Source: a virus (lineage: Duplodnaviria; Caudoviricetes). Taken from it: DNA of 57,384 nt. The position numbers were made by a program, and so were the translations under genes. Positions 39,196 to 56,819 of this stretch are shown one piece after another. Under the pieces are notes generated by a model. It was not told the DNA's origin. It searched no databases and saw only the letters and a program-made list of their open reading frames with translations. Where the stretch lies: the IMG/VR virus record IMGVR_UViG_3300028041_000098, positions 1-57,384 of that record, one strand, 5' to 3'. Position 1 is the stretch's first letter. Every line of letters begins with the position of its first letter.

Positions 39196-39233
39196 GAGGC
39201 TCGGTTCCTGGCGCGCGCTGGGAGCCGAGCCTT
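39196..39233 (+). terminator. Long hairpin after capsid gene (weak U-tract)
   Basis: GAGGCTCGGTTCCTGGCG / CGCTGGGAGCCGAGCCTT. Confidence 0.5.
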
Positions 39234-39270: not shown

Positions 39271-39648
39271 ATGCGTCGTCATCGTTCTCCCGGACCGCGG
39301 GCGCGGCTGATCGCCCTGACCATCGGCGGCGCCGTGTGCGCCCTGATGGCGGTGCTCGGCGCCCAGCAGGTGATCTCGCGCGAAACGCTGACCATCACGG
39401 ACCAGCCCACGCGGATCGCGCCGGCGACGATCACCACAGCCACGGGCGAAGTCGCGCGCGAGTGCCGCGGCCGCCTCGAAACCGCGCAGGTCCGGTACTG
39501 GACCAGTGCGACGCCCACGGCGTCGGACGGGATCCTGCTGGAGGTCGGCGACACGATCGTGATTCGCGGTACCTCGAATCTGGAAACCTTCCGCGCCATT
39601 CGCACCGGCGCGACGAGCGGCAAGTTGCCGCTGGAGTGTGCACGATGA
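39271..39648 (+). CDS. Signal peptide + small beta protein (head decoration/spike base-like)
   Basis: n/h/c regions ending VLGA-QQ; VRYW...PTASDGILLEVGD. Confidence 0.7.
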   Translation: MRRHRSPGPRARLIALTIGGAVCALMAVLGAQQVISRETLTITDQPTRIAPATITTATGEVARECRGRLETAQVRYWTSATPTASDGILLEVGDTIVIRGTSNLETFRAIRTGATSGKLPLECAR

Positions 39649-40016
39649 CCTTCCGCGCCGTCTGGACGATTGTGATGTGCTGCAGCCTGCTGAGTGCCGC
39701 GTCGGCGCAGCAAGCTGCGGCGCCGTCGGAGGCACCGGCCAAGCCGACCCTGACGCGGGAACTGGAGCTCGAGCTCGAAGTGTTTGCGCTCACGGTCGAG
39801 AACGCGCAGCTGCGCGCCAACCTCGCCAAAGCCTCGAACGACGCGCTCGCGCTCGAAGCGCAGCTCCTCACCCAGCAGCTCACGGCCCGACAGAAGACCC
39901 TCGGCGAGAAGATGGTGCGCGCCCTCGGCGGGGACCCGGAGAAGGGCGACACGTTCGACTGGCAGACGAAGACGCTCGTGCGCGCGCCGACGCCGCCGAA
40001 AGGGCAGGAGCCGTGA
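39645..40016 (+). CDS. Signal peptide + coiled-coil protein
   Basis: MTFRAVWTIVMCCSLLSAASA-QQ. Confidence 0.75.
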   Translation: MTFRAVWTIVMCCSLLSAASAQQAAAPSEAPAKPTLTRELELELEVFALTVENAQLRANLAKASNDALALEAQLLTQQLTARQKTLGEKMVRALGGDPEKGDTFDWQTKTLVRAPTPPKGQEP

Positions 40017-41209
40017 GACGGACCGTCCTCGCGCTCGCGCTCGTCGTAGCCGTCGTCCGCCCAGCGGCCGGACAGGTGGAGATCATCCCGGCACGCGCGA
40101 CGCTCGCCATCCCCGGCGTCGACACCCAGGTCATCTTCAACGACGGCGGGACGTTCGGGGCGACATCCGGCCTGACGTTCAACAAGACGACTGACATCCT
40201 CTCAATCGGCGCGGCCGTCCGCGTGGGCGATGGCAGCGCGTCCGCGCCGTCCTTCACCTTCGGCAATAGCACAAACACGGGTTGGTATCGGGCCAGCAAC
40301 CAAGTGAACCTCGCCATGAGCGGGGTGAATGCGCTCTTGATTGAGAACGGCGGGAGCGGTTCGACGTGGACGCAGTTCCGAAGTGGGACGAGCTATCTCT
40401 ATCTCGGTTCGGGTGGTGCGACCCAACTCACACTAACGTCGGGATCAGTCCAGATTGCGTCGGCAAGCAATCTGTCGTGGGGGACGCCGGGAGGATCGTC
40501 GGATCTCACCGTTGTGCGCGATGCCGCGGACACCCTCGCGCTGCGGCGCGGGGCGAACGCGCAGACGTTCAGACTCTATGGCACGTTCACAGACGCGAGC
40601 AACTACGAACGACTCCACGCAGGGTGGGACGGCGACCGCTTCTCGGTGATGGTGCAGCAGGCAGGCACCGGCACGGCTCGCGCAATGCGCTTCGGAACGG
40701 CAGGAAACGCAGCCATTCAGTTCCGCACGAACAATACCGACCGTTGGACGATCAATGGCAGCGGCCATTTGCTTGCGGACGCCGACAACACTTACGACAT
40801 CGGCGCGAGCTTAGCAAATAGACCGCGAAATCTGTTTATCGGCGGCTTTCAAAGTCTGGCTGGCGTGTTGTATTTCACCAGCAGGAGCGCAATTTCCAGC
40901 CCTAGTGACGGGGTTCTACGCCTCACGAATAACGCTGAAAACGATTTCAACCGCCTCCAGTTCGGCGGCACGACGAGCAGCTTCCCGGGGCTGAAGCGAA
41001 ATGGAGCGGAACTCCAAGTGCGTCTTGCTGACGACTCTGTGTTTGCCAGCTTCCAGTCGATGTATCAGCGCGTGGGGTCTGGCTCTCCTGAAGGTGCTGT
41101 CACTGCTCCCGTAGGGGCGATCTACCACCGCACCGATGGCGGTGCAGGCACGAGCCTCTACGTCAAGGAATCGGGGACCGGAACCAACACCGGCTGGGTC
41201 GCCAAGTAA
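40013..41209 (+). CDS. Signal peptide + fibre/spike-like protein
   Basis: MRRTVLALALVVAVVRPAAG-Q; G/S/T/N-rich fibre repeats; C-terminal GSGSPEGAVTAPVGAIYHRTDGGAGTSLYVKESGTGTNTGWVAK. Confidence 0.8.
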   Translation: MRRTVLALALVVAVVRPAAGQVEIIPARATLAIPGVDTQVIFNDGGTFGATSGLTFNKTTDILSIGAAVRVGDGSASAPSFTFGNSTNTGWYRASNQVNLAMSGVNALLIENGGSGSTWTQFRSGTSYLYLGSGGATQLTLTSGSVQIASASNLSWGTPGGSSDLTVVRDAADTLALRRGANAQTFRLYGTFTDASNYERLHAGWDGDRFSVMVQQAGTGTARAMRFGTAGNAAIQFRTNNTDRWTINGSGHLLADADNTYDIGASLANRPRNLFIGGFQSLAGVLYFTSRSAISSPSDGVLRLTNNAENDFNRLQFGGTTSSFPGLKRNGAELQVRLADDSVFASFQSMYQRVGSGSPEGAVTAPVGAIYHRTDGGAGTSLYVKESGTGTNTGWVAK

Positions 41210-41219
41210 AGGAACACAT

Positions 41220-41507
41220 ATGCCTCGCATCACGCTCGAAGTCGATCTCACGGACGAGCAGCTCGCCGGGCTCGCGCACGCCATTCAGCGATCGGGCGCG
41301 GATCCGGCGCCGTCGCCCTCCGCGTATCTGCATGCGCGTGTGCAGGACCTCGTGACGAGCTACGCGCAGGCGCGTACAGCGGAGATCGCGCGGCAGTCGA
41401 TCGAGCCGATGATCCCGGCCTTCATCGCGGCGCCCCCCGGTCTCAAAGCGCAGGTCCTGCCCCTGCTGGAGGAGGCACGGCAGCTGTTGGGGGTGCCGAC
41501 GACGTAA
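41220..41507 (+). CDS. Small fibre-associated protein (chaperone-like)
   Basis: AAGGA RBS; resembles 53760-54044. Confidence 0.7.
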   Translation: MPRITLEVDLTDEQLAGLAHAIQRSGADPAPSPSAYLHARVQDLVTSYAQARTAEIARQSIEPMIPAFIAAPPGLKAQVLPLLEEARQLLGVPTT

Positions 41508-41643
41508 CGAGATCGCGACGGCGTGTCGGCGGGTCGGGGCCCCGGCAGCACGCACGAGCGGTGCACCGCAGACAGGCGCCGGGCCCTCCTGGGTGAAAGC
41601 AGGATCCCGGCGCCTGCGGTGCGACAGAGGAGACCAACGAATC

Positions 41644-42081
41644 ATGCAGCCGATCTTCGAAGTACCGGTTCCTGGGCGATGCGACGAGGTGCGCGTCGGT
41701 GGCGACGTGTATCCCGTCTTCACGCCGCACAAGTATCTCGGCCGGACGTGCCGCCGCGCCGCCCTCGTGGAAGCGCCGCTCGAGGTGGGCGTGCAGCAGG
41801 GCTGGACCCGGCGGATCGACGTCGAGGCCGGCCGGAAGGCGTACTACCTGGCGCTGGGCGCGGCCGCGGCCGACGCGATGCGGCAGGCCGATGCCGAGGG
41901 TCTCGACGCGGAGCGCCAGGCGCGCGAGGACGCGGAGCGCCAGGCGCGCGAGGCGGAAGACGCCGCCCGGGCAGCCGCGCAGCCCGACCCGGCGGCCGAC
42001 GCCGCATCGAGCGCCGCGCCGAGCGAGCCGGCGCCGGCGACGCCGCCCGCCACGAATGGTCGCCGGAGCCAGCGGCGGTAG
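41644..42081 (+). CDS. Hypothetical protein
   Basis: GAGGAG RBS after structured intergenic region. Confidence 0.65.
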   Translation: MQPIFEVPVPGRCDEVRVGGDVYPVFTPHKYLGRTCRRAALVEAPLEVGVQQGWTRRIDVEAGRKAYYLALGAAAADAMRQADAEGLDAERQAREDAERQAREAEDAARAAAQPDPAADAASSAAPSEPAPATPPATNGRRSQRR

Positions 42082-42084
42082 CCC

Positions 42085-42642
42085 ATGGACCCGCTCGCGC
42101 TGTTCGACCTGCCGGCGTTGAAGGCGCACTGCAAGATCTCCGCGGCAGACGGGACGCGCGACGCGATCCTGTCGGTCATCGGCAACGCCGCCTCGGCGTA
42201 CTGTGAGGCGCGCGTCGGCCAGCAGTTCAAGCCGCGCGTCTACACGATCGAGCGCAGCGGCGACGGCACGACGAAGCTCCTCCGGCTGCCGCGGCCGATC
42301 ATCTCGGTCGAGAGTCTGTCCGTGGACGGGATGGACATCGCGCCGTCGGAGTACTTCGTGTACGCGGAGGCCGGCAAGATCCAGCTGCGCACGCGGACGT
42401 TCCGCGCCGGCGTCGGCAACGTGCGGGTGATCCTCAACGCGGGCTACGACGAGACGCACCCGCGGCGCCGGCAGATCACCGCGGCCGCGCTCGACCTGGC
42501 GAAGAGCCACTACGACGAGTGGGACGCCAATGCCATCTCGGCGACGTCGATCTCCGTCGGCCCGCAGTCGATGGTGATCCGGCCGGGGCTGAACCCGCGC
42601 ATCGAGAAGTTCCTCGACTCGATCCGGGACGTGAGGGGGTAG
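42085..42642 (+). CDS. Head-tail adaptor (gp6/gp15-like)
   Basis: LKAHCKI...D..L...AASAYCE...PIISVESL...NVRVILNAGY. Confidence 0.85.
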   Translation: MDPLALFDLPALKAHCKISAADGTRDAILSVIGNAASAYCEARVGQQFKPRVYTIERSGDGTTKLLRLPRPIISVESLSVDGMDIAPSEYFVYAEAGKIQLRTRTFRAGVGNVRVILNAGYDETHPRRRQITAAALDLAKSHYDEWDANAISATSISVGPQSMVIRPGLNPRIEKFLDSIRDVRG

Positions 42643-42644
42643 GC

Positions 42645-42707
42645 ATGCGAACGCTGTCATTCATCGTGATGGTGCTGATCGCCGCGATGCATCCGCTGTT
42701 CGGGTAG
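42645..42707 (+). CDS. Possible 20-aa hydrophobic micro-ORF (MRTLSFIVMVLIAAMHPLFG)
   Basis: GAGGGG RBS; fills the gap between neck genes. Confidence 0.4.
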   Translation: MRTLSFIVMVLIAAMHPLFG

Positions 42708-42714
42708 CGACGCG

Positions 42715-43377
42715 ATGGAATTGCGGCTCAAGGCAGGCGAGGTCGTCTCCGACTACGGCCAGGCGTCGAAACTGATCGGGGCGAACATCGTCCGGCAGCT
42801 GCGCACGATCGGCGCAGCCCTGATCCGGATCATCGCCCGCGACAAGCTCTCTGGCGGCGGCGCCGCGGGGACCGGTGCGGCGCTGACGCGGCGGACCGGC
42901 ACGCTCACGCGCGCGCTGTTCTGGAAGTTGCGGCTCGACGGCAAGGACGCGGTCCTGATCGTCGGCGCCGACGGGAAGAAGGCCGCGTACGCCGCGATCC
43001 AGGAGGAAGGCGGGACCGTGCGCCCGGTGCACGCCGAGAACCTGACGGTGCCGCTCGAGGCGGCACGGACGGCGAAGGGCGTCGCCCGGTTCAGCGCGCG
43101 GCAGCTCTTCGACAATCCGCAGTCCGTCGGCTACGTCGACGCGTTCACGGCCAAGGGCGTGATCTTCGGCGTGAAGCAACGGAAGCGGAAGGGTGAGGCG
43201 GTCGACGGCTACGGGTCGATCGAGGCGCTCTTTGCGCTCAAGAAGCAGATCACGATTCCGGGGCGCCACTACATGCGGGACACCGTGCAGGAGCGCCGGG
43301 CGTGGATCCTCGAGCAGCTGGGCGCGGCGGCGGCGGACGGCGCGAACGGTGAGAAGACCGCTGGGAGCGACGGATGA
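42715..43377 (+). CDS. Neck/tail completion protein (HK97 gp10-like)
   Basis: RRTGTL...YAAIQEEGG...ITIPGRHYM. Confidence 0.75.
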   Translation: MELRLKAGEVVSDYGQASKLIGANIVRQLRTIGAALIRIIARDKLSGGGAAGTGAALTRRTGTLTRALFWKLRLDGKDAVLIVGADGKKAAYAAIQEEGGTVRPVHAENLTVPLEAARTAKGVARFSARQLFDNPQSVGYVDAFTAKGVIFGVKQRKRKGEAVDGYGSIEALFALKKQITIPGRHYMRDTVQERRAWILEQLGAAAADGANGEKTAGSDG

Positions 43378-43844
43378 TCTTCGACACGAAGCGCGGCAAG
43401 GCCCTGAAGGCGATCGCCGATCGGCTCCGCGCCATGACGGTGGCGACCGGGTACCACTGGGACGTCCGGCCCGGATCGGTATACACCGACCCGGTCAACC
43501 TGCTGGCGATCTCCGGGACCGAAGCGCCGCTGTTCCTGGTGGAGCTCTCGGAGAACAGCCGCGAGTTCCTGCCGGCGAACGAGCTCGAAGACGAATTTGA
43601 CGTCCTGATTACAGGGCTGGTGGAGGCGCCGGGCACCGCGCCCGACCGCAAGGTGATCGCCGGCGAGAACCTGATCGGCGACGTCGAACGGACGCTGTGC
43701 GTCGACGTGACGCTCGGCGGGCAGCTGTTCGATCTGCGCGTGGTGCACGCCGATCCGCCGCTGGCCGGCATGGGGACGCAGTCCAAGGTCGTGGTGTTGG
43801 TGACGGTCCGCTGCAGCCAGCATCGGCAGCACGGCGCACCGTAG
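43374..43844 (+). CDS. Tail terminator protein
   Basis: GY...P.F.V...LIGDVERTL..DVTLGG; position. Confidence 0.75.
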   Translation: MIFDTKRGKALKAIADRLRAMTVATGYHWDVRPGSVYTDPVNLLAISGTEAPLFLVELSENSREFLPANELEDEFDVLITGLVEAPGTAPDRKVIAGENLIGDVERTLCVDVTLGGQLFDLRVVHADPPLAGMGTQSKVVVLVTVRCSQHRQHGAP

Positions 43845-44007
43845 CGGTTGTTGGAGATCGCCAGGCGCGGGCGTCATGACCCCGCGTCCGCGCGCGCCCG
43901 TCGCGCTGGCGCCTCTCCCGAGTCACGGGTAGCGAGTTCGAGAGCCACCTCGCCCGCGGTCCGGCGCGTATGTCGCCGGCGCCCGCGGCTGGGTGGCTTT
44001 TCGTTTT
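43845..44007 (+). ncRNA. Structured leader RNA, copy 2 (before tail-tube module)
   Basis: UCAUGA-loop hairpin within junction, then AGAGCCAC...GUGGCUUUU hairpin. Confidence 0.55.
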
Positions 44008-44020
44008 GAGGAGGACACAC

Positions 44021-44305
44021 GTGCGACTGATGCGCTGCGCCTTGAGTTCGGTGTCGGAAATCTCCCTCAGCTACGGCGAGTTCAGCCGCGAGCTGGGCGG
44101 GGGCGCGGTGGTCGATTTCGACCAGGTCGTCGGGCGCCAGGCGGCCGTGACCGACGTCGACGGCCGCGAGCTCGCGCCGGCTCGGTCCGTCACGATCGAG
44201 GACCTGCTGGCCGGCCGGCTGGAATGCTTCGTGCCGGTGGAGGCAGCATCCCCGCAGGAGCGGCCGCGGCTGACGCCGGCGGCCACCGACGACGTCGAGG
44301 AGTAA
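44021..44305 (+). CDS. Small protein preceding tail tube
   Basis: GAGGAGG RBS, GTG start. Confidence 0.7.
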   Translation: MRLMRCALSSVSEISLSYGEFSRELGGGAVVDFDQVVGRQAAVTDVDGRELAPARSVTIEDLLAGRLECFVPVEAASPQERPRLTPAATDDVEE

Positions 44306-44349
44306 CAAACGACGCGCGCGCGAGGCGTGCGCCCCAGGAGTAGACCGCA

Positions 44350-45492
44350 ATGCGACAGGTAGGACGTCTCGGACGATTGCTCGCCTTCGAGGAAGCCGCG
44401 TACGGCGACACGCCGGCGCTGCTCGCCACGATGGCGGTGCGGCACCTCAATTTCACCGCCGAGTACCAGCCGCGGAACCGGGTGCCGAGCGAAGAAAAGA
44501 AGGCCACCCGTGGCCGCAAAGTGCGCTTCGATCGCGCGCGGACCGCAGGCTTCGATCTCACCGCGATCCTGCGCCCGTCGGGCACGATCGGCACGATCCC
44601 CGAGGCGCACACGCTGCTGCGACACGGGTTCGGGGCCGCGATCGTCGGCACGCTGAACGGCACGGTCGCGGCCGCGGCGTCGACGACCGTGTTCACGCTG
44701 CAGGCCGGCGAAGGCGCGAGCGTCGTCGCGGGCGAGTTCGTCAGCGTCCGTCGCGCGGCCAACGGCAACGTGCCCGAGGCGCGTCGCGTCCTCTCGAAGG
44801 CCGGCGACGAGCTGACGCTCAATGCGCCCCTCGGCGGGATTCCCGCGGCGAATGACACGGTCAAGGCGGGGGTGACGTACCGATTCGGCGCGCTCGCGAA
44901 GTCGATCGGATTCGCCCACTACCTGACGGACCTGAAGCGCACCGTCAAGGGCGGGCTCCCGAACGAGCTGACGCTCAGCTTCGAGCGCAACAAGGAGCCC
45001 GAGTTCCGCCTCGCAGGTCCGGCGCAGCAGGCCCCGCGCGGCGCCGCCGCGCTCCCCGGCTTCACGACGGTCGGTTCGCAGAACCCCCCGTCGGGGCTCG
45101 CCGGCAGCGGCCTGATTGTCAACGGCGTCGCGCGAAAGTTCATGAAGTGCGAGGTCTCGATCGATCTCGGCCGGGAGCTCATCTCGGAAAACTACGGGAC
45201 GTCGATGGCCGAGGCCTTCGACGAGCCGGACTTCCGTGACGTGACGTTCTCGTTCGAACGGCGCGCCGACACGGACTACACCCTGTACGACCTGGCGGAG
45301 GACGGTGCGCTGTTCGACTTGCTCCTGCAGACGGGGCTCACGGAAGGCAACATCGTCGCGATCCACGCGCCGAAGGCCGAGATCGAGCACGTGCCGCAGC
45401 TGCCGGACGACAACGGCGTGCTGACGCACAGCTTCGCCGGCGTGCTGAACGAGAACGCCGGCGACGACGAAGTCGCGCTCGGCCTGCTGTAG
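44350..45492 (+). CDS. Major tail (tube) protein
   Basis: EEAAYGDTP N-terminus, beta-rich; position before chaperone and tape measure. Confidence 0.82.
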   Translation: MRQVGRLGRLLAFEEAAYGDTPALLATMAVRHLNFTAEYQPRNRVPSEEKKATRGRKVRFDRARTAGFDLTAILRPSGTIGTIPEAHTLLRHGFGAAIVGTLNGTVAAAASTTVFTLQAGEGASVVAGEFVSVRRAANGNVPEARRVLSKAGDELTLNAPLGGIPAANDTVKAGVTYRFGALAKSIGFAHYLTDLKRTVKGGLPNELTLSFERNKEPEFRLAGPAQQAPRGAAALPGFTTVGSQNPPSGLAGSGLIVNGVARKFMKCEVSIDLGRELISENYGTSMAEAFDEPDFRDVTFSFERRADTDYTLYDLAEDGALFDLLLQTGLTEGNIVAIHAPKAEIEHVPQLPDDNGVLTHSFAGVLNENAGDDEVALGLL

Positions 45493-45498
45493 ATCGTC

Positions 45499-45612
45499 AT
45501 GTGCGAGCACCCGACGCATCTGTCGCCGACAGATCGTGTGCTCTTGAGACAGCTCCGGATCGCCGCCTGGACGTGCCCACGCTGCGCGCCACCTGGCGAT
45601 CCAGAGGAATAG
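45499..45612 (+). CDS. Possible 37-aa Zn-binding microprotein (MCEHPTHLSPTDRVLLRQLRIAAWTCPRCAPPGDPEE)
   Basis: Manual translation; CxH...CxxC; no clear SD. Confidence 0.4.
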   Translation: MCEHPTHLSPTDRVLLRQLRIAAWTCPRCAPPGDPEE

Positions 45613-45769
45613 GTTCGCAACACCAGTTCGTTCGCTGACGCGGGGCCCACCTTGTCCAGGGGAGAGGGTTCCGCGTCCCCCTCGCGAACGCCTCGTCGGT
45701 CCCTCGGCAGCCGTCGTGTCGCTGCCGTCATCCCACGATCCATCGTTCGACGTCCCCGGAGGAAGCGCC

Positions 45770-46414
45770 GTGAAAGTTGCCAGTTCATATCCGACCACCC
45801 TCTACATCGACGGGGAGCCGCTGCGGCTCCGCGTGAAGAAGCTCACGCGCGAGCAGTGGATCGACTTCAGCGCGGAGATGGAGCGCAGCGGCCGCCTGCT
45901 GCGCGGCCGCGAGCTCCTCCTGAAGGACCGGCAGCCGGGGGAGGACGGACTCACGAGCGAACAGGTGGAGGCGAAGCGGTTCATGGCGCTGTCGCTGCAC
46001 GAGCGCGAGGCGCAGCTCGAAGCGGAAAAGGCCGAGGAGTTGCGGGCCGCCGCGTTCACCGACGCGTCCATTTCGGCCTACGTCACCGCCGAGGCCGACG
46101 CCCTGTACGACGAGGAGGCGGGCCGCTACGTGACGGACGGCGCTGACATCGTGCGCCTCTTCGGGCAGCGTCCCGACGTGCTGGCGGAGATCCTGACGGC
46201 CGTCCTCCTCGAGAACCGCCTGTCCGCCGAGCAAAAAAAAACCTTGCAGGTGCTGCGCGCTTCTCAGCGTGGCTCGAGCGGCAGAGCAGTGGCGCCTGGC
46301 ACGACACCGGACTCGACTGCGGCGCCTGCCGAGAGCGAAGCCTCTGCGGCGAGCGCGGATGCGACGGGGTCGCCCGAGACGAGCCCGTCTGGAGCGACGG
46401 CCCCCTCGAGCTGA
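45770..46414 (+). CDS. Tail assembly chaperone (gpG-like)
   Basis: GGAGG RBS; LSAEQKK at slippery A9 run. Confidence 0.85.
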   Translation: MKVASSYPTTLYIDGEPLRLRVKKLTREQWIDFSAEMERSGRLLRGRELLLKDRQPGEDGLTSEQVEAKRFMALSLHEREAQLEAEKAEELRAAAFTDASISAYVTAEADALYDEEAGRYVTDGADIVRLFGQRPDVLAEILTAVLLENRLSAEQKKTLQVLRASQRGSSGRAVAPGTTPDSTAAPAESEASAASADATGSPETSPSGATAPSS

Positions 46415-46686
46415 CCACCTGTCCGGTGCTGCTCTTCACGCCGGATGTGAAGGCGGCGCTCATGTGGTTCACCGGCACGCATCGCCTGGTGATCGAGCAG
46501 GGCTACGCGCAGTGGGTGCGGACGGCGCTGCCGCACGAGGGAGGGCTCGGCGACCAGGACAACCGGCTCCTCGAAACCTTGGAGCTGCTGCAGGGCGTCC
46601 ACAACGCCATCGCCCACGAGCAGATGGCGGAGGTCGCGCGCAGGCGAGACACAGAGACCTGGCGCAAGAACAGACGGAACGAGTGA
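46233..46686 (+). CDS. gpT-like part of tail chaperone reached by -1 frameshift
   Basis: A9 at 46233-46241; -1 frame open: KNLAGAARFSAW...CGAC...TCPV...LPHEGGLGDQ. Confidence 0.85.
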
Positions 46687-46689
46687 ACG

Positions 46690-49600
46690 GTGGCCAAAGA
46701 TCGCAACGTCGAGCTGGAAATCAGGGCGAAGAACCTGACGGAAGCTGCCTTCAAGAAGGTCGCGGACGCGATCAAACACCTGGAGGACGCTTCAGAGGCG
46801 ACGTCCGCGAAAGGGACGCAGAGCTGGGGCAAGTGGTTCGCCACGATCGCCGGCGGGGTCGCCGTGGGGAACCTCATCTCGTCGACCTTCAAATCGGTGC
46901 TGGGCACCGTCGCACAGATCCCCGGGCAGCTGATGGAAATCGCGAAGCGCGGCAACGACGTCGCCGACGTGAAGGAGGCGTTCGTCGGGCTGGCGGGCGG
47001 CGGCGAGCAGGCGAACGCGATCCTGAAGGAGCTCCGCACCCAGTTCGGACACACGGTGAACGACTTCGAGCTGATGAAGTCGTCGAACGAGCTGCTGCGC
47101 AAAGGTGTGGGGATGACGGCGCAGGAATTCGGCGTCCTCACCCAGGGCGCGCGGATCCTCGCCAACCAGGTCGGGGGAGACGGCAAGGCAAACTTCGACA
47201 GGTTCCTCAGCGCGATCGGGCGCGGCAACGAGCGGGAGCTGCGTGACCTCGGCGTCAACATGGCGAACATCGAGCGCGCCGTCGATCGCCAGGCGGCCGC
47301 GTGGGGCAAGGAATCGAGCGCGCTCAGCCAGGCCCAGAAGCAGCAGGCGATGAAGAACGCCGTGCTCGAGGAGGCGAACCGGCTCCTGCGCGAGAACGGC
47401 CCCGTCCAGAACGGATTCAACGACAACCTCAAGGCGGCCGAAACGCTCGTCCAGAACTGGACCGATCGGCTCGGCGAGGCGATCGCCACCTCGCCCCAGC
47501 TGAACACCGCGCTCAATCACATCGTAGGTGGCATGGCTGCCGCCTTCGGTCATGACCCTCAGGAGCAGGTGAAGTCGATCGCGCGGCTGATCGGCCACGT
47601 CGCCATCGCTGGCGTCAACGCGGCGCAGTACCTCGTGAGCGGAGCGGAGCTGGTCGCCCGCGCCTACTACCAGGTTCGCGAGATTTTCAGCGCAACGATG
47701 GCGGCGCTGAATGCGAAGAAGATCCGCGAGACCGAGATTCTGCTCGACGCGTTCAGGGCGATGAACCAGGGATCCCAGGAGGTCCGCAATCAAATCCGTG
47801 CGCTCGAAGACGAACTGGCGCAGTTGCAGGGACGCACGAAGGGCTTCAGTGACGACGCCGCGTTCGCGGCGCAGATGAACAAGGACCTCGCCACGAAGAG
47901 CGAGGACCTCAGGCGAAAGCTCGCCGAGATGGAGCTCGCCATGCGTGCCGCCGGCGAGGCGACCGGCGAGGCCTCCAGGACCGGCCGGGGGCTGATCGGC
48001 ACGCAGGGCGCGCTCGGCGAGTCGAGCGCGGAGCTCGCGAAGCTGCAAACGGAGGTCACGAAGAAGCTCCGCGAGATGGCCGCGGCCGCGGACGCCGCTG
48101 CCAAAAACAACGTGCTCGAGGCGTGGGCGCGTCAGAACGCCAGCGCGCTCCAGAAGCTCGCCATCGATGCGATGACCGTGGGCAAGACGCTGCAGGGTCC
48201 CCTAAAGGACGCCCTAGTCTTCAACATGAAGGCCGACGGCGCGCAGTTCGCCGCAAAGGAGTTCGATCGGATCATCAAGGAACAGCAGGCGACGCACTTC
48301 AAGGCCGTCGACGCGATGAACACGAAGTTCACGACGTCGCTCGACCTGCGCGCCGGCGCGTTCGCGGAGTACCACGACCTGGTGGCGAAGCGGACGATGA
48401 CGGAGCTCCAGTACCAGCTCGAGGTCATCCAGCGCGAGGAGGACGCCAAGATCCTCCAGCTGCAGCGGCTCGGATACGCCACCGCCGAGAATCTCGAGCT
48501 GATTCGAGCTGTCACCGCGGAGAAGATGGCGGCCGCCCGGCTCGCGCACAACACCGAACTCGAACGGATGCGGCGCGAGGTGGATTCCTGGGGGAAGCGG
48601 TTCCGCGACATCGTCGGGGCCGTTCCATCGCTCCTGAAATCGGCGTTCACCGGCGGGGGTGGCGCCAAGGGATTCGGCCAGGCCCTGTCCGTCCAGATCG
48701 GCGAAAGCCTGTTCGGGAAGGGCGCCGAGAAGCTCATGACGAAGGGCTTCCAGGGGCTGTTCAACAAGGGGCTGATCAGCGCGCGGACGCTCGGTGGGCT
48801 GGCCGAGATGATCCCGGGTCTCGGCGGTGCAATCGGCGCGCTCGCGGGACCGCTGCTCGGCAAGGTGTTCAGCTTCTTCGGCAACAAGGAACGGAAGGAG
48901 AACGAGGCGGCCACGAAGGAGGTCCGCGCACTCGGCGGGGAGCTCCTCACGACCTACGGCTCGATGGAGAACCTGCGTCTGCTGGGCCAGATGACGGGGA
49001 AGGACATCGCGGGATCGTTCGGCCACGCCGGAAAAAAGGGCCTCGAACAGTTCAAGCTCGACGCCAAGGAATTCGAGAAGGCCGTCGGCGAATTGCGCAC
49101 GCGCGTGAACCGCGACCTCGGTGGCGTGCTCGAGGAATTCCGCGGGATGGGCTTCTCGATTCCGGCCGCGCTCCAGCCGTCGCTCGACAAGCTCCGCGAG
49201 ATGAACCTGCTCACGGAGGACACGCAGGCGCTGCTGCGTGGCTTCGGCGACCAGGCGACGATCGACTACAAGCGGATGGAGGAAGCGGCCGCCCGCTATG
49301 GCATCCACGTCGACAAGCTGGGACAGGGATTCAACAACGCGAAGATCTCGGCGTCGGTGCAACAGATCCTTGAGGACTACGACCTGCTGACCCGCGGCGG
49401 CGCCGAACCGACCGGCATCCTGGAGGACATGGCCGACGAGATCTCCGAGGTGGCGCAGCGCGCGATGCGGCTGGGCATCTCGATGCCGGAAAACATGCGG
49501 CCGATCCTGCAGGCGCTCGTCGACAAAGGCCTGCTGCTCGACGCCAACGGCGAGAAGATCGAGGACCTCAACGGGATGTCGTTCGGGGACCCGATCAAGG

Positions 49601-50058
49601 TGGGGCTCGAGCGGATCGCGGATCTCCTCGAAAAGCTACTGAAGGGTCTCGGGATCGATCTGCCGAATGCGCTGAACAACATCCCGCGACGCGTCGACAT
49701 CGACATCAACGCGCACGTGCGCACCCACGGCGAGCTGCCGGCGTCCGGGTACGCGCCGGACGACAGCGGCCTGGGCATGCCGACGTTCCGCGGCGCGGCC
49801 GCCGGCGGCCTGTTCACGCGGCCGACGTTCCGCGTCCTCGCCGAGCGCGAACCGGAGATCGTCGGCTCCCCGAACGTGATCTCCGACGCGATCGCCACGG
49901 CACTCCGCCAGGCGGGCGGGGGCCTCGTCGGTGGTGGCGAGGTCGTCATTGAGAACGTGACGTTGGTCACCCGCGACCATCGCGTGCTCGCGGACGTCGT
50001 CGTGCCGGAGATCCCGCACGTCGTGAAGCGTCGCGTCGGGCCGGGAAGGCGGCGCTGA
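46690..50058 (+). CDS. Tape measure protein
   Basis: 1122 aa, helical Ala-rich; follows G/GT pair; C-terminal AAGGLFTRPT...EREPEIV. Confidence 0.93.
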   Translation: MAKDRNVELEIRAKNLTEAAFKKVADAIKHLEDASEATSAKGTQSWGKWFATIAGGVAVGNLISSTFKSVLGTVAQIPGQLMEIAKRGNDVADVKEAFVGLAGGGEQANAILKELRTQFGHTVNDFELMKSSNELLRKGVGMTAQEFGVLTQGARILANQVGGDGKANFDRFLSAIGRGNERELRDLGVNMANIERAVDRQAAAWGKESSALSQAQKQQAMKNAVLEEANRLLRENGPVQNGFNDNLKAAETLVQNWTDRLGEAIATSPQLNTALNHIVGGMAAAFGHDPQEQVKSIARLIGHVAIAGVNAAQYLVSGAELVARAYYQVREIFSATMAALNAKKIRETEILLDAFRAMNQGSQEVRNQIRALEDELAQLQGRTKGFSDDAAFAAQMNKDLATKSEDLRRKLAEMELAMRAAGEATGEASRTGRGLIGTQGALGESSAELAKLQTEVTKKLREMAAAADAAAKNNVLEAWARQNASALQKLAIDAMTVGKTLQGPLKDALVFNMKADGAQFAAKEFDRIIKEQQATHFKAVDAMNTKFTTSLDLRAGAFAEYHDLVAKRTMTELQYQLEVIQREEDAKILQLQRLGYATAENLELIRAVTAEKMAAARLAHNTELERMRREVDSWGKRFRDIVGAVPSLLKSAFTGGGGAKGFGQALSVQIGESLFGKGAEKLMTKGFQGLFNKGLISARTLGGLAEMIPGLGGAIGALAGPLLGKVFSFFGNKERKENEAATKEVRALGGELLTTYGSMENLRLLGQMTGKDIAGSFGHAGKKGLEQFKLDAKEFEKAVGELRTRVNRDLGGVLEEFRGMGFSIPAALQPSLDKLREMNLLTEDTQALLRGFGDQATIDYKRMEEAAARYGIHVDKLGQGFNNAKISASVQQILEDYDLLTRGGAEPTGILEDMADEISEVAQRAMRLGISMPENMRPILQALVDKGLLLDANGEKIEDLNGMSFGDPIKVGLERIADLLEKLLKGLGIDLPNALNNIPRRVDIDINAHVRTHGELPASGYAPDDSGLGMPTFRGAAAGGLFTRPTFRVLAEREPEIVGSPNVISDAIATALRQAGGGLVGGGEVVIENVTLVTRDHRVLADVVVPEIPHVVKRRVGPGRRR

Positions 50059-51890
50059 TGCCGGTCGACCATGAGATCGAGATCAACGGCGTCGTCCGGC
50101 CGTTCGTCGCCACGTCACTGGATGTGGAGTGGGATCTCGACGGCCGCGGGAGTATCGCCTTTGATGTCCCCTCCGGTGACGCGTCGTTCATTCCCGCCGA
50201 GCGGCAAACGGTACTCGTCCGCGAGAACGGCGTGCCGATCGCGCGCGGCACGATTGACACGCCGCGGTCGGCAGGCGTTGGAGGCGTCGGCCTGACGCCG
50301 GTGGAAACCCACGTGACGGCGCTCGACGCCGTCGCGATCTTCGACCGTCTCTACGTCACCGGCACGATGCCGGCAGGGTCACTGAAAACGAAGCTCCAGT
50401 GGCTGGTGTCGTTTTTCTCAGGGCACGGGCTCGAGCTCGATCCGGCACAGGTGGATGGGCCTCTCGACCTGCCGGAGATGCCGTATCCCGAGCCGACCCG
50501 CGGCGCCGACATCGCCGGGGACTTGGAAATGGTGACTGGCTACGCGCTCGACGTGAGTCCCACGCTCGCGGTGCGGATGTTTCTGCCTGGCACCGACCCC
50601 GCGCCGTTCGCGATCGTCGAAGGTGACGGCAACGTCTACGGTGACCTCGAGGTTGAGCGCGTCGACCTGGACTACGGAAACCGGATCCGGCTGCGCTACA
50701 CCTTCGCCGCGCTCGCAGCCTATGCCTTTTACGGGGGCGGCGGGAACGTCGTCGATGGGGACCAGGTGACGATCGGCTCGCGCACCTATACGTTTCACGA
50801 CGAACTCCAGGGCTCCAGCGGCAGCGTGCTGATTGGACCAGACCTGCACGAGAGCCTGTCTCACCTGATGCTGGCGATCGCGTCAGCGGATCGCGTGGGG
50901 GCTGGAGTGCTCTATTCGGCGGCCACGGCCGTGCACACGCAGGTGTCCGCCTACTTTCAACACGCGACTGCGCTGCGCGTCGTGGCCCTCACGCCGGGCA
51001 GCGCCGGCAACAACATCGGCGTGGACTCCACGTCGGGCAGCGCGGGGTGGTTCACCGAGGGCGGCGGACCGACGTCGACGCTCCTGTTCGGCCTCGACGC
51101 CGGGCTCGGCAATGAGGTCGTCGTCGACGACGCGGTCGAGCAGGCGAAGCCGGGCGTCGGCGTCTGGGAGGCGCTGGTCGTCCGCGAGGACGTCTACACC
51201 GCCGACGTCGCCCAGCTGTTTGCCGCAGCGTATCTCGCCCGGGCCGTGCAGTCCTCCTACTCTCGTGTCACCTACGCCACCCGCCGCCCAGGATTGCGGA
51301 AGGGGCAGACGCAGACGATTGAAGCGCCGGCGCGCGGCGCGACGGGCACGCACCTCATCACGAACGTGCGCGTGCGTCGCCCGAAACCGTTCCGGCCCGT
51401 CTGGTACGTCACAGCCATCTCCGGCACGGTGTGGCCACGCACGTCCTGGAAAGACACCTACGCCGGCTGGTCGGCGGGCGGCGGCTCGAATGCCGCGGCG
51501 CCGCCGGGAGGCGTGACCGTCGTGACCGGTGGAGATGTCGCCTCCGTCTTCCACGGCGGCTCAAGGGAGATGGCGGTGCCCATGGGGGCACCGCCCGCCT
51601 GGACGCCGATCGTCGGCTGGCTCCCACACGTCGCGCGCGCCACCGGTACGCGGCGAATTCGCGCGGCACTCGGCGCCCGGGCAGCCGGCGTTGCGGTGAA
51701 GGTGCGGTGGCACAACCTCACCGACGGAACAGATGTTGAATCGAGCTGGGTCACTGCGGTCACGCCGCAGGTCCTCATCGAAACCGAATTCCTGGTCACC
51801 GAGGAGGCCGGCAAACGGTACCGGCTCGACGTGATCACCGATACGAACGGAGTGTCCGCGTATGCGCTCGTGCAATCTGAACGTGTGTAG
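50058..51890 (+). CDS. Tail tip / baseplate hub protein
   Basis: Directly after TMP; YGNRIRL, GLRKGQTQTI...HLITNV. Confidence 0.75.
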   Translation: MPVDHEIEINGVVRPFVATSLDVEWDLDGRGSIAFDVPSGDASFIPAERQTVLVRENGVPIARGTIDTPRSAGVGGVGLTPVETHVTALDAVAIFDRLYVTGTMPAGSLKTKLQWLVSFFSGHGLELDPAQVDGPLDLPEMPYPEPTRGADIAGDLEMVTGYALDVSPTLAVRMFLPGTDPAPFAIVEGDGNVYGDLEVERVDLDYGNRIRLRYTFAALAAYAFYGGGGNVVDGDQVTIGSRTYTFHDELQGSSGSVLIGPDLHESLSHLMLAIASADRVGAGVLYSAATAVHTQVSAYFQHATALRVVALTPGSAGNNIGVDSTSGSAGWFTEGGGPTSTLLFGLDAGLGNEVVVDDAVEQAKPGVGVWEALVVREDVYTADVAQLFAAAYLARAVQSSYSRVTYATRRPGLRKGQTQTIEAPARGATGTHLITNVRVRRPKPFRPVWYVTAISGTVWPRTSWKDTYAGWSAGGGSNAAAPPGGVTVVTGGDVASVFHGGSREMAVPMGAPPAWTPIVGWLPHVARATGTRRIRAALGARAAGVAVKVRWHNLTDGTDVESSWVTAVTPQVLIETEFLVTEEAGKRYRLDVITDTNGVSAYALVQSERV

Positions 51891-53748
51891 AGGCGCCCTG
51901 CTCGCGCTCGTCATGTGCGCAGCGGCGGCGCCGGCGCTGGCGCAGGCGCCCGAGATCGATGTCTCGCGGATCTATCTTGGGTCGCCCGCCGCGACGCTCC
52001 ACAGCGGCTCGGGCGCACCCTCGGCCTCGGCGCCGTCCGGCAGCATGTACTTCCGCACCGACACCGGGCAGTGGTACCAGCACATCGCCGGCGCGTGGCG
52101 CGCATTAACCGATGCCAACGGCGTGCTCGTCGGGTCGGCGAATCTGACCGATCTCAGCGCTTCTGGCTCGGTGGACGCGACCGGCAATGTATTCGCGCGT
52201 CAGGGGCTCTATATCGGGAGCGATGGCGCCTGGCTGCTGAACAAGTCCGGCAGCGGGTGGCTGAACTGGGCCGTGCGGAACACGAGCGGCAGCGAGTCGA
52301 CGCTGGATCTGCAGTTTCTCGGGCCGATCGGGGCGCATCTGATGCCGGCCACTCACGACGCGTTCCATGTGGGTCGTGCGGATCGCATCTGGCGCGAGGC
52401 GTGGATCGGGCAGCTGCATTCGCTGGTGTTCAGCGCGTCGACGCAAACGATCTTCGGCGGCTACAACATCATCGGCAAAGGGGCGGGGACCCTTGCGTCG
52501 CTGGTGACGCCGTCGGACACGAGCATCGATTTCGGCCGGTCGATGACGGCGACCGACTGGGTGGAAATCCGCGCGCACGACACCAGCGGCGACGTCAAGG
52601 TCGAGTACCTGCAGGTGGGCGCGCTCGTCAGCGGCACCACCTACGCCGTCACGCGCGATCTCGCCGGCGCGCATGGGACCGACCCGGAGTGGGCGGCCGG
52701 CACGCCGTTCTTGGTGCTGGGCTCGGCTGGGGATGGGCGGATCGCGCACCTCGCGGCTGGGCCCCGCACGATCTGGGGGCAGCAGGGGGTGACCCACGAC
52801 GCGTTCACGCCACGCGTCGTCGTGGGCAATCTCGACGGATTCTTCGGGTACAGCTCGCGCGTCTTCGGCCTCGCTGCTGGAGATCCGGCCGCGGCGTGGA
52901 TCAAGATCGATCCGACGAATGGCCTCCGCATCGGCCACGGATCCACCACGAAGATCAGCCTTGACGCCAGCGGGAGCGCCGTGATCACCGGTCCCGACAT
53001 CACCCTCGGCACCGCGGCGAGTTACCTGTCGAGCAACGCGCTGAAGTTCGCGCGGCCGTCGAATCACAGCGGGGTCTTCGACCTCTATTCCGTCGCCGGA
53101 TCAGGTCTGACGGATCTCTATTTGGAAAACGACCTCGCGCCGGCGTTCGGCGCGTCGCAAGGCCGGATCATCCTGCGCGCGCGGAGCTACAGCGTGGGGC
53201 CCACGCCGTCGAACTGGGCCTCGCTCACGCTCACGAGCCTGTCGAGCAACACCGTTTCCGCCGCCCAGCTCGTGGCCGATCAGATCGCGCTTACGGGCAC
53301 GACGAGTATCACGGGCGCGCTCTCCACGTCGAGCGCCATCACGGAGCGGAACCGCGCGACGCCACTCGGCGAATGGCAGTCGGTCGCGTACAACAGCGGC
53401 CACTTTTCGGCGTCGGCAGGGACGTGGACGGTGGAGAGTGCCGACCAGGAGGTACTCGGCTACACGCTCGTCGGCAAGACCATGACGGTGACGTATCGGC
53501 TCACGTCGACCAGCGTGAGCGCGGCGCCTGGCGCGCTGCGCGTCGCGATCCCGGGCGGCTTCACGGCCGCCCGCAGCACGCTCGTGCCCATCGGCTATGC
53601 GGCGGACGCGGGCACGATCGTGGACGCGTACGCGTCGGTAGGTAGCGGGGGCACGCTCATTGTGTTCAACAAGCGCACCGCCGCGAACTGGTCGACCGCC
53701 ACCAACAGCACCGACGTGATCGGGCAGATCACGTTCGAGATTCAGTGA
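51883..53748 (+). CDS. Signal peptide + tail fibre / receptor-binding-like protein
   Basis: MCRGALLALVMCAAAAPALA-Q; GSGAPS...GSMYFRTDTGQWY; C-terminal YTLVGKTM...IPGGF...GQITFEIQ knob-like domain. Confidence 0.8.
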   Translation: MCRGALLALVMCAAAAPALAQAPEIDVSRIYLGSPAATLHSGSGAPSASAPSGSMYFRTDTGQWYQHIAGAWRALTDANGVLVGSANLTDLSASGSVDATGNVFARQGLYIGSDGAWLLNKSGSGWLNWAVRNTSGSESTLDLQFLGPIGAHLMPATHDAFHVGRADRIWREAWIGQLHSLVFSASTQTIFGGYNIIGKGAGTLASLVTPSDTSIDFGRSMTATDWVEIRAHDTSGDVKVEYLQVGALVSGTTYAVTRDLAGAHGTDPEWAAGTPFLVLGSAGDGRIAHLAAGPRTIWGQQGVTHDAFTPRVVVGNLDGFFGYSSRVFGLAAGDPAAAWIKIDPTNGLRIGHGSTTKISLDASGSAVITGPDITLGTAASYLSSNALKFARPSNHSGVFDLYSVAGSGLTDLYLENDLAPAFGASQGRIILRARSYSVGPTPSNWASLTLTSLSSNTVSAAQLVADQIALTGTTSITGALSTSSAITERNRATPLGEWQSVAYNSGHFSASAGTWTVESADQEVLGYTLVGKTMTVTYRLTSTSVSAAPGALRVAIPGGFTAARSTLVPIGYAADAGTIVDAYASVGSGGTLIVFNKRTAANWSTATNSTDVIGQITFEIQ

Positions 53749-53759
53749 GAGGACTCCAC

Positions 53760-54044
53760 ATGGAGATCACGATCGTCGGTATCAACCCGCTCACCGTCCA
53801 AATCGCGTTTGGCCCGAAGGAGCAGCGCGCCCTCGCGTTCGCCGCGCAGGAGGCGAGCCGGACGGAAGGCCGCGCGATCACGGCCCGCGAGCACCTCGAG
53901 GGCCGCATCGGCGAATACGTCAGCGCGATGCTCCGCCGCTACAAGGAACGCGTGACCAATGAGCTGTTGGAGAAATTCGACGTGGCCACGCCGGAGCAGC
54001 AGCAGATCGCGATCGAAGCCGTGGGCGGCACGATGCCGCAATAG
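53760..54044 (+). CDS. Small fibre-associated protein (chaperone-like)
   Basis: GAGGA RBS; resembles 41220-41507. Confidence 0.7.
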   Translation: MEITIVGINPLTVQIAFGPKEQRALAFAAQEASRTEGRAITAREHLEGRIGEYVSAMLRRYKERVTNELLEKFDVATPEQQQIAIEAVGGTMPQ

Positions 54045-54110
54045 GGCCGCGACCACTCATGCTCATTGTCTCGCCTCTCGGGTAGGCCCCAAGCAAAGGT
54101 AGGAGCTCAG

Positions 54111-55805: not shown

Positions 55806-55887
55806 CTTGCCGTTCCTGAGGTACCGAACCTGAAACTGTCCGCATCGGCGCGCCCCGGCGACCGATTTTGTGACTGACGATCGAGAA

Positions 55888-56268
55888 ATGCGTGCGCTCC
55901 TCTTCGCCGGCGCTCTCCTGGGTCTGGCCTTCAGCCAGCCCGCGGCGTCGTCCGCCCAGATCCCCGCTGCAGCGGTGACACCGGCAGCCGAGGACGGGCG
56001 GACCACGGCGAGCGGGGGACCCATGGACGAGCAGCTCTTTAAGTACGCACTGACCCAGGGAGGGCTGACGATCGTCTGCCTCGTGCTGTTCTGGTGGATT
56101 CAGCGCGAACACCGCCGGCAGGACGCGGCGAAGGACGAACGGATGCAGATCCTCGTCGTCCTGGTGGAGAAAAACACGGCGGCCCTCACGGCGTCTGAGG
56201 CGACCAACGCGCGGCTCGCGCGCGCGATCGAGACCACGCGGCTGTTGCCGCCTGGGGCGACCGTATGA
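55888..56268 (+). CDS. Holin-like protein (BhlA/UviB-like core) with N-terminal signal-like extension
   Basis: MDEQLFKYALTQGG + one TM + coiled coil; ATGA overlap with lysozyme. Confidence 0.7.
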   Translation: MRALLFAGALLGLAFSQPAASSAQIPAAAVTPAAEDGRTTASGGPMDEQLFKYALTQGGLTIVCLVLFWWIQREHRRQDAAKDERMQILVVLVEKNTAALTASEATNARLARAIETTRLLPPGATV

Positions 56269-56819
56269 CACCGCAGGACTACGCGGCGCTCGAGGCGCAG
56301 CTGATCCAGCACGAAGGCCTCCGCCTGACGCTGTACCTGTGCACGAGCGGCAAGCTGACGTGGGGCGTCGGGTACAACGTGTCGGACCGCGGACTGATCC
56401 CGCTGCAGCGGGCGCTTGGCCGCAGCGTCACGATCGAGGATCTGCGCGCCGGGCGCCTGACCCGCGAGGATGCCCTGACGGTGCTCCGGAGAGACATCCC
56501 CACGTTCGAGGCGCAGATCCGCGAGCGCCTGCCCCGGTACGACCAGCTCGGGGCGGTCCGGCAGCGGGCGATCATCGACTTCGTGTTCAACCTGGGCGCC
56601 ACCCGCGCCGCCGCGTTCACCAGCGCGATCGCTGCGGGTCGACTCGCGCTCGCGCAGACGGATCCGCGCCTGGCGCAGGCCTGCTGGGACGCCTGCGCGT
56701 TTCACATGATGGATTCGCTCTGGGCGCGTCAGGTCGACGACGGGCTCGGGGGGAAGCGCGGTCGCGCCGATCGCGTCTGTCACATGATCCGCACCGGCGT
56801 GGACCCGGGGCCGCGATGA
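56265..56819 (+). CDS. Endolysin, T4-like GH24 lysozyme
   Basis: HEGLRLTLYLCTSGKLTWGVG (E-x8-C-x5-T), FNLG, DSLWARQV. Confidence 0.92.
   Translation: MTPQDYAALEAQLIQHEGLRLTLYLCTSGKLTWGVGYNVSDRGLIPLQRALGRSVTIEDLRAGRLTREDALTVLRRDIPTFEAQIRERLPRYDQLGAVRQRAIIDFVFNLGATRAAAFTSAIAAGRLALAQTDPRLAQACWDACAFHMMDSLWARQVDDGLGGKRGRADRVCHMIRTGVDPGPR

Follow-up and report, generated by a model that had tools for sequence, protein, structure and literature searches.

The virus contig IMGVR_UViG_3300028041_000098, analysed here as a whole record of 57,384 bases (the window, about 69% GC), carries four late genes whose products begin with leader peptides for the Sec export pathway, each predicted to be cut so that glutamine becomes the first mature residue. 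Three of them (P0001, P0002 and P0003) form a cassette that begins 86 nt after the stop of the capsid gene, and the fourth (P0004) is the main tail fibre, encoded next to the tail hub. We regard the export of these leader-bearing proteins as very probably genuine, and infer that P0004 itself is among the exported proteins. The complete scheme that we prefer, in which fibres are exported, cleaved and then dock on the tail once the holin has opened the inner membrane, is held tentatively, at a little under an even chance. The initial annotation of this DNA had proposed that the appendages are exported and dock at lysis, or act as secreted receptor blockers. Its export half is upheld by leaders that are conserved and by a cysteine pair that accompanies them, while for docking the one line of support is a predicted hub-fibre complex; the evidence speaks neither for nor against receptor blockers.

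Leader peptides of the late genes

Sec leaders with glutamine at +1 had been claimed for the genes starting at 39271, 39645, 40013 and 51883, and these N-termini were confirmed in the sequence. In all four a positively charged n-region is followed by a hydrophobic h-region and by small residues at -3 and -1, as judged by eye and with a home-made rule for the n-, h- and c-regions; in signal peptides of this kind the h-region usually has about 7-15 residues. Glutamine stands at +1 of the predicted cleavage site in each of the four (Table 1). For P0003 the rule picked a different site, as an arginine interrupts the hydrophobic run, and AAG/Q was assigned by eye.

Hydrophobic N-termini can arise from reading frames extended too far upstream. 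The rule flagged one such frame in the window, the terminase read from TTG 29600, where the start is most likely over-extended and which shows how false leaders originate in GC-rich DNA. That the four leaders are likewise artefacts of start choice, or of a composition of 69% GC, is nevertheless barely credible. Three of the four starts are fixed within a few codons because the stops of the preceding genes limit them: the ATG of P0002 overlaps the P0001 stop (ATGA, 39645), the start of P0003 lies over the P0002 stop (GTGA, 40013) with GGAG 5 nt upstream, and the fibre start overlaps the end of the hub gene. The fibre start itself had been placed at 51883. The leader assigned there stands, and the start is more likely the ATG at 51862, which has GGAG at -13 to -10 and agrees with the public gene call of 628 residues; the change adds seven n-region residues and leaves the leader otherwise as it was. 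The next in-frame start in the fibre is about 55 codons downstream, the intervening third-position GC is 0.88, and third-position GC agrees with coding in all four frames, leaders included.

The rule was also applied to every ATG, GTG or TTG in the six frames with at least 100 codons downstream. It flagged 10 of these 1355 starts, six of them belonging to the four genes, which leaves a background of 4 among the 1349 other starts. All five of the flagged sites with glutamine at +1 belong to the four genes. That homologues also retain leaders, as set out below, argues further against an artefact.

The virion proteins expected to stay in the cytoplasm had been said to lack leaders, and indeed the rule flagged none of the capsid, portal, tube, tape measure and hub proteins. 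Three further leader-like N-termini, absent from the initial annotation, were seen at 33727-34182, at 55870-56268 (the holin-like protein) and in a cut reading frame at 57157. The first is a plus-strand open reading frame (ORF) of 151 codons after the portal gene, with a third-position GC of 0.89 and an arginine-rich, hydrophobic N-terminus ending in an AxA-like site without glutamine at +1; it had no PADLOC match and could add a fifth exported or membrane protein to those of the late genes. The holin-like protein has an additional hydrophobic N-terminal segment before its membrane helix, ending in Ala-Gln like the four leaders. The third, 57157-57384 on the plus strand, runs off the right contig end with a leader-like hydrophobic start and a third-position GC of 0.82, and could be a spanin or a host gene. 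Export through the twin-arginine (Tat) pathway was considered for the four proteins and ruled out: several leaders start Arg-Arg, but many relatives have lysine or a single arginine, and the h-regions are short and strongly hydrophobic.

Comparison among homologues, a check that the initial annotation had itself put forward, showed that the leaders recur as a feature while their sequence drifts. For the fibre (P0004, P0125), leaders are present in 7 of 20 homologues, each of the seven exposing glutamine; in an alignment of the first 140 residues of eight leader-bearing fibres, only M1, A27 and Q28 are invariant. P0002 has a sole homologue, P0146, which is 68% identical in the mature part and has its own unrelated leader, also ending A/Q. 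The P0001 family comprises 380 representatives at E<=0.001, and among the best 150 there are 91 with a leader, 56 of the 91 with glutamine at +1. P0003 belongs to a very large fibre family (1178 homologues among 8000 scored candidates), in which 18 of the 119 best non-self matches were flagged with a leader; two of these 18 looked doubtful on inspection, and glutamine is at +1 in nine.

Close pairs show the drift most directly. Leader identity is 6/20 against 41/79 for the mature part in P0125 and P0126, and 3/20 against 68/98 in P0002 and P0146; in a third pair it is 17/29 against 60/94. Leader divergence thus exceeds that of the mature part in two of the three pairs and is about equal in the third. 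Leader composition tracks the GC content of the phage, being rich in Lys, Phe and Leu at GC 0.52 and in Arg, Ala and Val at GC 0.69.

The window is most likely a temperate siphophage of a soil bacterium, a high-GC diderm host from the Vicinamibacterales (Acidobacteriota). The assignment to Acidobacteriota comes from the source labels of fibre relatives: the closest, P0126, is labelled as a protein of a Vicinamibacterales metagenome-assembled genome, and another relative is labelled Gemmatimonadaceae. Exposure of glutamine at +1 is, in the available text of the paper describing this Q-rule, a hallmark of signal peptidase I substrates in Bacteroidetes, and the analysis as described there did not include Acidobacteria or Gemmatimonadetes (PMC5837995). 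In OmpH/Skp proteins from a spread of Acidobacteriota genomes (L061-L092 with L075 left out, genome GC 0.32-0.73, one orthologous family), glutamine stands at +1 in 24 of 31 predicted leaders. In LptD_N, taken as a second host family, 4 of 28 proteins had any predicted leader and none had glutamine at +1, most of the frames having run off their loci. The OmpH data suggest that the Bacteroidota rule may be valid in Acidobacteriota too, and it is on that one family that the suggested resemblance of the phage leaders to the host's own is based.

The P0001 family offers evidence of a different kind. Members with a leader have both of two cysteines in 72 of 76 cases, against 11 of 48 members without one (Fisher p=2.6e-17), counting members in which the anchor motif could be placed (27 of 151 without the motif were dropped). 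In 26 of the 48 leader-less members there is no cysteine at either place, and several of the 11 that have the pair look truncated or over-extended at the N-terminus. The pair occurs in two alternative registers that shift together in both strands, as predicted for a disulfide between neighbouring strands. A disulfide present with the leader and gone without it is independent evidence that leader-bearing forms in the P0001 family reach an oxidising compartment.

The split hub and fibre

Directly before the fibre gene lies that of a 610-residue protein whose modelled fold is that of a gp27-like hub. The AlphaFold2 model has a pLDDT of 62.7 overall and of 75-92 in the matched parts, and Foldseek gave 94 matches at E<=0.001, led by 3cdd, the MuSo2 43-kDa tail protein (E 6e-15), and followed by Mu gp44, T4 gp27, VgrG and siphophage tail tips. 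Between the tape measure gene and this hub (46690-51890) there is no separate Dit gene, and the same holds for the related loci L010, L013 and L014.

The identification of P0004 as the main tail fibre was sustained: it is a homologue of fibres encoded behind a tape measure and hub, and of the fibre part of hub-fibre fusions. P0004 has no Pfam, PHROG, NCBIfam or PDB sequence match, and in the ESM Atlas has weak viral neighbours only (best score 0.85); the S74 domain, PF13884, is found in three of its homologues. Five proteins, P0132-P0136 (one partial), are fusions in which the first ~430 residues align with the hub and the sequence from residue ~466 aligns with P0004 from residue 40 onward. 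In related phages, then, the P0004 core is the central fibre at the C-terminus of the hub.

This core was found in 29 viral and nine genomic loci, mostly behind ordinary leader-less N-terminal domains. Leaders precede it in five of the viral loci, four of them distinct. The order tape measure, hub, leader-bearing fibre, with the stop of one gene overlapping the start of the next, is found in the window and in L010 (GC 0.69), L013/L022 (0.66) and L014 (0.52); in L038, the fourth distinct locus, a leader-bearing protein with part of the core lies behind a capsid gene. A homologous domain of ~140 residues closes every hub that precedes a leader-bearing fibre. Searched against 3955 ORFs of 60 loci and the plus-strand ORFs of the window, a profile of this domain matched only such hubs, in four lineages, and it had no match in the stored proteins, among them the hub-fibre fusions. 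Fission of the gene, gain of the leader and gain of the hub domain therefore go together.

In gp27, Mu gp44 and siphophage Tal hubs with a C-terminal central fibre the fold is the same as here, and in P0132-P0136 the hub runs on into the P0004 core. The window differs from such systems in that hub and fibre are separate genes, the fibre has a leader for Sec and signal peptidase I, and the hub has a private end domain of ~140 residues. In L014 (9177-10153) the leader-bearing fibre is directly followed by a gene of lipoprotein type, with a lipobox-like motif that ends in cysteine, and by a second gene with a hydrophobic N-terminus. These two may be spanins, and the tail genes of L014 would then end with the fibre.

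A model of the complex, another check that had been proposed at the outset, places the mature N-terminus of the fibre on this hub domain. Given three copies of the hub C-terminal domain and three of fibre residues 28-140, the modelled complex scored 0.89, and none of three controls rose above 0.00; at least 93% of contacts were common to the runs and the partner pLDDT was at least 81. Of 80 solved complexes 58 reached the score mark used, as did 2 of 110 mismatched pairs, a calibration that is only rough for alignments of our own and for 3+3 copies. In the model, fibre residues 28-36, the first nine of the mature protein, contact hub-domain residues beside an invariant GG, W75 and R101. As the fused relatives align with P0004 only from residue 40, the predicted docking strand is special to the split form. 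Docking of the fibre on the hub domain through residues 28-36 is thus a modelled interaction.

Proposed assembly in two compartments and its alternatives

These results can be joined in the following scheme. During late expression the fibre would be exported unfolded through Sec, and signal peptidase I would cut it after ALA, leaving an N-terminal glutamine that is perhaps capped as pyroglutamate. The fibre would fold and trimerise in the periplasm, where P0001 would form its disulfide, and meanwhile fibre-less particles would be assembled in the cytoplasm. A soluble lysozyme implies a holin that makes large lesions. The lysozyme of the window has no membrane segment, which points to such a holin, so that cytoplasm and periplasm would become one space after triggering. 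The holin would open the inner membrane for the lysozyme, the two pools would mix inside a still closed outer membrane, and the new N-terminal strand of the fibre would dock on the C-terminal domain of the hub. That docking coincides with the triggering of the holin is conjectural, as is the pyroglutamate cap.

In its more general form the proposal is that assembly is split over two compartments, with fibres stored in the periplasm and the holin as the switch, that this arose through fission of a hub-fibre gene and gain of a leader, and that it has spread in phages of Acidobacteriota, Gemmatimonadota and at least one lower-GC host. We put this forward as possible, with somewhat less confidence than the scheme for the window.

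Each part of the scheme has known counterparts: exported proteins encoded by phages, fusions of hub and fibre, and exported fibres of bacteria. Phages encode Sec-type and signal-anchor-release (SAR) endolysins, spanins, T5 Llp, and lambda Lom and Bor, all exported, and to our knowledge none of these is a homologue of a virion fibre or a fibre gene of a tail module. The exclusion lipoproteins of the Llp, Cor and Ltp type have a lipobox with cysteine at +1; here all four proteins have glutamine at +1 and there is no lipobox. The coat proteins of filamentous phages, which belong to a different virus realm, have signal peptides, pass through Sec, assemble at the membrane and are extruded without lysis. 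In the window, by contrast, the capsid, tail tube, tape measure and hub are leader-less, and genes for a holin and a lysozyme are present.

Closer in build are the MAT fibres of Bdellovibrio bacteriovorus. The available text of the paper describes 21 MAT proteins in which a signal peptide leads into a conserved beta-rich domain and then into a long trimeric fibre, some with S74 ends, displayed outside the cytoplasm, and one of them was made behind a PelB leader in E. coli (PMC10769870). This argues that Sec-led, phage-like trimeric fibres are feasible. As that text presents them, the MATs are encoded on the chromosome of a predator, which uses them on its own cell surface, while the genes described here lie inside a phage structural operon and one overlaps the hub gene (PMC10769870). 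Phages of P. gingivalis also have genes whose products are predicted to be cut by signal peptidase I so as to expose glutamine, in keeping with the host's own exported proteins; in the part of the report available these are five genes of no stated function, interpreted as host-surface modifiers, and here the leader-bearing proteins are fibre homologues in virion gene positions (PMC10367356). The literature searched contained no report of a tailed-phage tail fibre that has a Sec leader or is assembled from the periplasm; the table of Q-rule genes in the P. gingivalis report (PMC10367356) lay outside that scope and may bear on the matter. The text consulted of the phiCbK genome paper (PMC3556154) has nothing on exported fibres, and that of a survey of polymorphic toxins, which describes tail-fibre repeats in secreted toxins, likewise has nothing on them (PMC3482391).

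Several points weigh against the scheme. The leader calls come from our own heuristic and not from SignalP. We know of no tailed phage that sends a virion protein through Sec, which gives the idea a low prior. The complex was predicted from shallow alignments (four and seven rows), and as the model was given a fibre already cut at residue 28 it fits cytoplasmic assembly equally well. The private C-terminal domain of the hub could equally be a cap that completes the tail tip without a fibre. Dilution after lysis would oppose docking unless docking precedes failure of the outer membrane. The disulfide argument applies directly to P0001 only, since mature P0002, P0003 and P0004 have no cysteine, and in a small module common to fibres the link between leader and cysteine pair is weak (3 of 9 with a leader against 2 of 26 without, p=0.09). 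The place of the P0001 cassette also varies: it follows the capsid gene here, lies beside tail genes in L044, L047 and L057, and comes after the fibre and holin in L049, which fits an accessory cassette as well as a part of the virion.

Some of these points are shared by an alternative in which the exported fibres never join the particle. They would instead act on the envelope, as MAT adhesins do, binding or masking glycans or receptors and so saving progeny from the debris, or loosening exopolymers, and the hub domain would be a cap that replaces the fibre. The evidence for export from leader conservation and the cysteine pair applies here in the same way; MAT fibres have a similar build as described (PMC10769870), and three P0004 homologues carry S74. 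The Q-rule proteins of the P. gingivalis phages are taken, in the available text, to modify the host surface (PMC10367356), the P0001 cassette has no fixed place, and the leader-less 579-residue protein could be the particle's own receptor binder. Yet the fibre gene overlaps the end of the hub gene in four lineages, which ties its dose to that of the hub, and the complex model puts the mature N-terminus of the fibre on the hub domain. A scan for promoters and terminators, with a consensus that may not fit the host, gave no promoter-like site or plus-strand terminator that separates the leader genes or marks an independent unit. There is no lipobox, and none of seven proteins was matched by PADLOC. 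We consider a purely envelope-bound fibre unlikely, though by no means negligible.

It is rather improbable that the leaders are unused or only partly used, with assembly in the cytoplasm and an N-terminus that is tolerated, removed in some other way, or divided between two locations. Virion proteins of tailed phages are normally assembled in the cytoplasm, the fibre core and a 44-residue module are common to leader-less tail proteins of many phages, the complex model is independent of where the partners meet, and mature P0003 and P0004 have no cysteine. An unused segment would not, however, retain its n-, h- and c-regions and an invariant A-Q amid drift, nor would it take on the composition of each host, and the cysteine link in P0001 indicates that such leaders function in these phages. 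A periplasmic fibre might also serve superinfection exclusion, binding the hub domain of the incoming tail tip of a related phage and so blocking DNA entry. Such a role would also agree with the modelled contact between the mature fibre N-terminus and the hub domain, and exported phage proteins that block incoming tails are known, the Ltp and Llp lipoproteins among them. The gene lies in a late operon and overlaps the hub gene, so a lysogen is unlikely to make the protein; a lipobox and a PADLOC match to a defence family are both lacking, and a fibre of 600 residues is far larger than a block needs. Exclusion therefore seems to us very unlikely.

If fibres do dock after export, as we tentatively prefer, the assembly route would be new in kind. 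It would be an exception to the wholly cytoplasmic assembly of tailed-phage virions, and opening the way to the final step of assembly would become a second function of the holin. There are consequences for annotation as well: phage proteins with signal peptides are usually dismissed as host-modifying "morons" and excluded from virion predictions, and here hundreds of leader-bearing relatives lie in structural modules. For fibre production the scheme, if true, suggests periplasmic expression with an N-terminus that begins at glutamine.

The cassette behind the capsid gene and the other genes

P0001, P0002 and P0003 probably make up a second exported set that forms one appendage unit from a disulfide-bonded jelly-roll, a coiled coil and a fibre. 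The AlphaFold2 model of P0001 (pLDDT 93.6) has a helix at residues 9-30 followed by a beta-sandwich of jelly-roll type. Foldseek gave no PDB match at E<=0.001 and, in BFVD, 44 small uncharacterised phage proteins. In a wide structural search the spike protein P1 of PM2 came first (Z 8.5, root-mean-square deviation 2.8, 85 residues aligned), tied with cupins at Z ~8, and the C-terminal domain of chitobiase was weakly matched in 9 of 41 family members. The initial annotation had likened P0001 to a decoration protein or spike base. The evidence does not support a decoration: the fold is a jelly-roll whose closest match is that tie, and the place of the cassette varies. The idea that P0001 is a copy of the hub docking domain was dropped, as profile-profile comparison found no likeness (probability 0.9%). 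Leader-less relatives of P0001 lie in structural modules of lower-GC phages, and the leader-bearing ones among other leader genes on high-GC contigs.

P0002 had been called a coiled coil, and its mature part does have that appearance by eye, with a weak match to CENP-H as the only other sign. It was also considered as the inner-membrane subunit of a two-component spanin and rejected: it has the cleavage site ASA/QQ, lies 16 kb from the lysis genes and between leader-bearing genes, and neither contains nor is followed by a lipoprotein gene.

P0003 was described at the outset as a head fibre; it is fibre-like, and nothing points to the head. It has a weak PHROG match to phrog_9942, tail fiber (E 2.8e-7), and its last 44 residues (41075-41206) recur, at 75-82% identity, at the C-terminal end of proteins annotated as tail spikes, fibres or minor tail proteins in cultured phages of Klebsiella, Acinetobacter, Pseudomonas and Gordonia, including L093 3501-3629 and L094 3501-3629. 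This 44-residue module is unusually conserved across host phyla, and some fibres of the P0004 type have a related module behind the leader. The third-position GC of the P0003 gene (40013-41209) is 0.74, against 0.84-0.97 in its neighbours, which fits recent acquisition or a mosaic fibre gene. A connection between P0001 and P0003 is suggestive only: one of 21 long P0001-family members (P0165) matches P0003 by BLAST as a P0001-fibre fusion, and in L043/L044 (one phage) a P0001-like gene is followed by a leader-bearing P0003-like gene. The spacer between capsid and P0001 genes contains an 8-bp GC-rich inverted repeat (39196-39231, found by eye in the sequence) that could reduce read-through into the cassette.

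Table 1. Features of the window discussed in the text; a slash marks the predicted cleavage site.
Feature	Position	Strand	Description
Integrase	1-1383	-	
Terminase ORF	29600-31399	+	Large terminase; read from first TTG, 29600
Portal, protease-scaffold fusion and tail tube genes	Within the window		Portal and tail tube not flagged for a leader
Major capsid protein, 469 aa	37775-39184	+	PF17236 SU10_MCP, E 2.4e-5; no leader
P0001, 125 aa	39271-39648	+	Leader 1-31 (39271-39363), LGA/QQ; mature 94-aa jelly-roll with Cys65 and Cys123
P0002, 123 aa	39645-40016	+	Leader 1-21 (39645-39707), ASA/QQ; mature part an apparent coiled coil with Pro-rich end
P0003, 398 aa	40013-41209	+	Leader 1-20 (40013-40072), AAG/Q; fibre-type protein
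Tape measure protein, 1122 aa	46690-50058	+	Assigned from position and length; no leader; directly upstream of hub
Tail hub, 610 aa	50058-51890	+	gp27/Mu gp44-like; no leader; residues ~441-610 (51378-51887) form the private C-terminal domain
P0004 tail fibre, 628 aa	51862-53748	+	Leader 1-27 (51862-51942), ALA/Q; predicted docking strand 28-36 (51943-51969)
99-aa protein	53745-54044	+	After fibre; L010 12640-12936 starts with nearly identical residues
579-aa protein	54066-55805	+	Leader-less; no family match
Holin-like protein	55870-56268	+	BhlA holin, E 1.7e-4, under the Pfam cut-off
Soluble lysozyme	56265-56819	+	Phage_lysozyme, E 5e-10; N-terminus not hydrophobic, no membrane segment

Database searches placed few of these proteins in families. 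Pfam, PHROGs and NCBIfam had none for P0001, P0002, P0004, the hub, or the 99- and 579-residue proteins, and sequence searches of the PDB gave nothing, or E above 0.2, for the P0001 profile, the fibre profile, the hub and the 579-residue protein. A phage collection of 50,697 records held no match to P0004, hence no cultured relative of it, and none to P0001, and a capsid-based search of viral contigs found no related phages.

A contig of 106,821 bases carries an identical fibre protein, and the window record may therefore be a cut prophage; the viral record behind L010 is classed as a provirus. The 99-residue protein is kept behind the fibre in L010, the closest relative. The first half of the 579-residue protein has a weak likeness to beta-propellers (ESM Atlas, TM 0.33-0.59), and this protein may be a receptor binder or an accessory enzyme.

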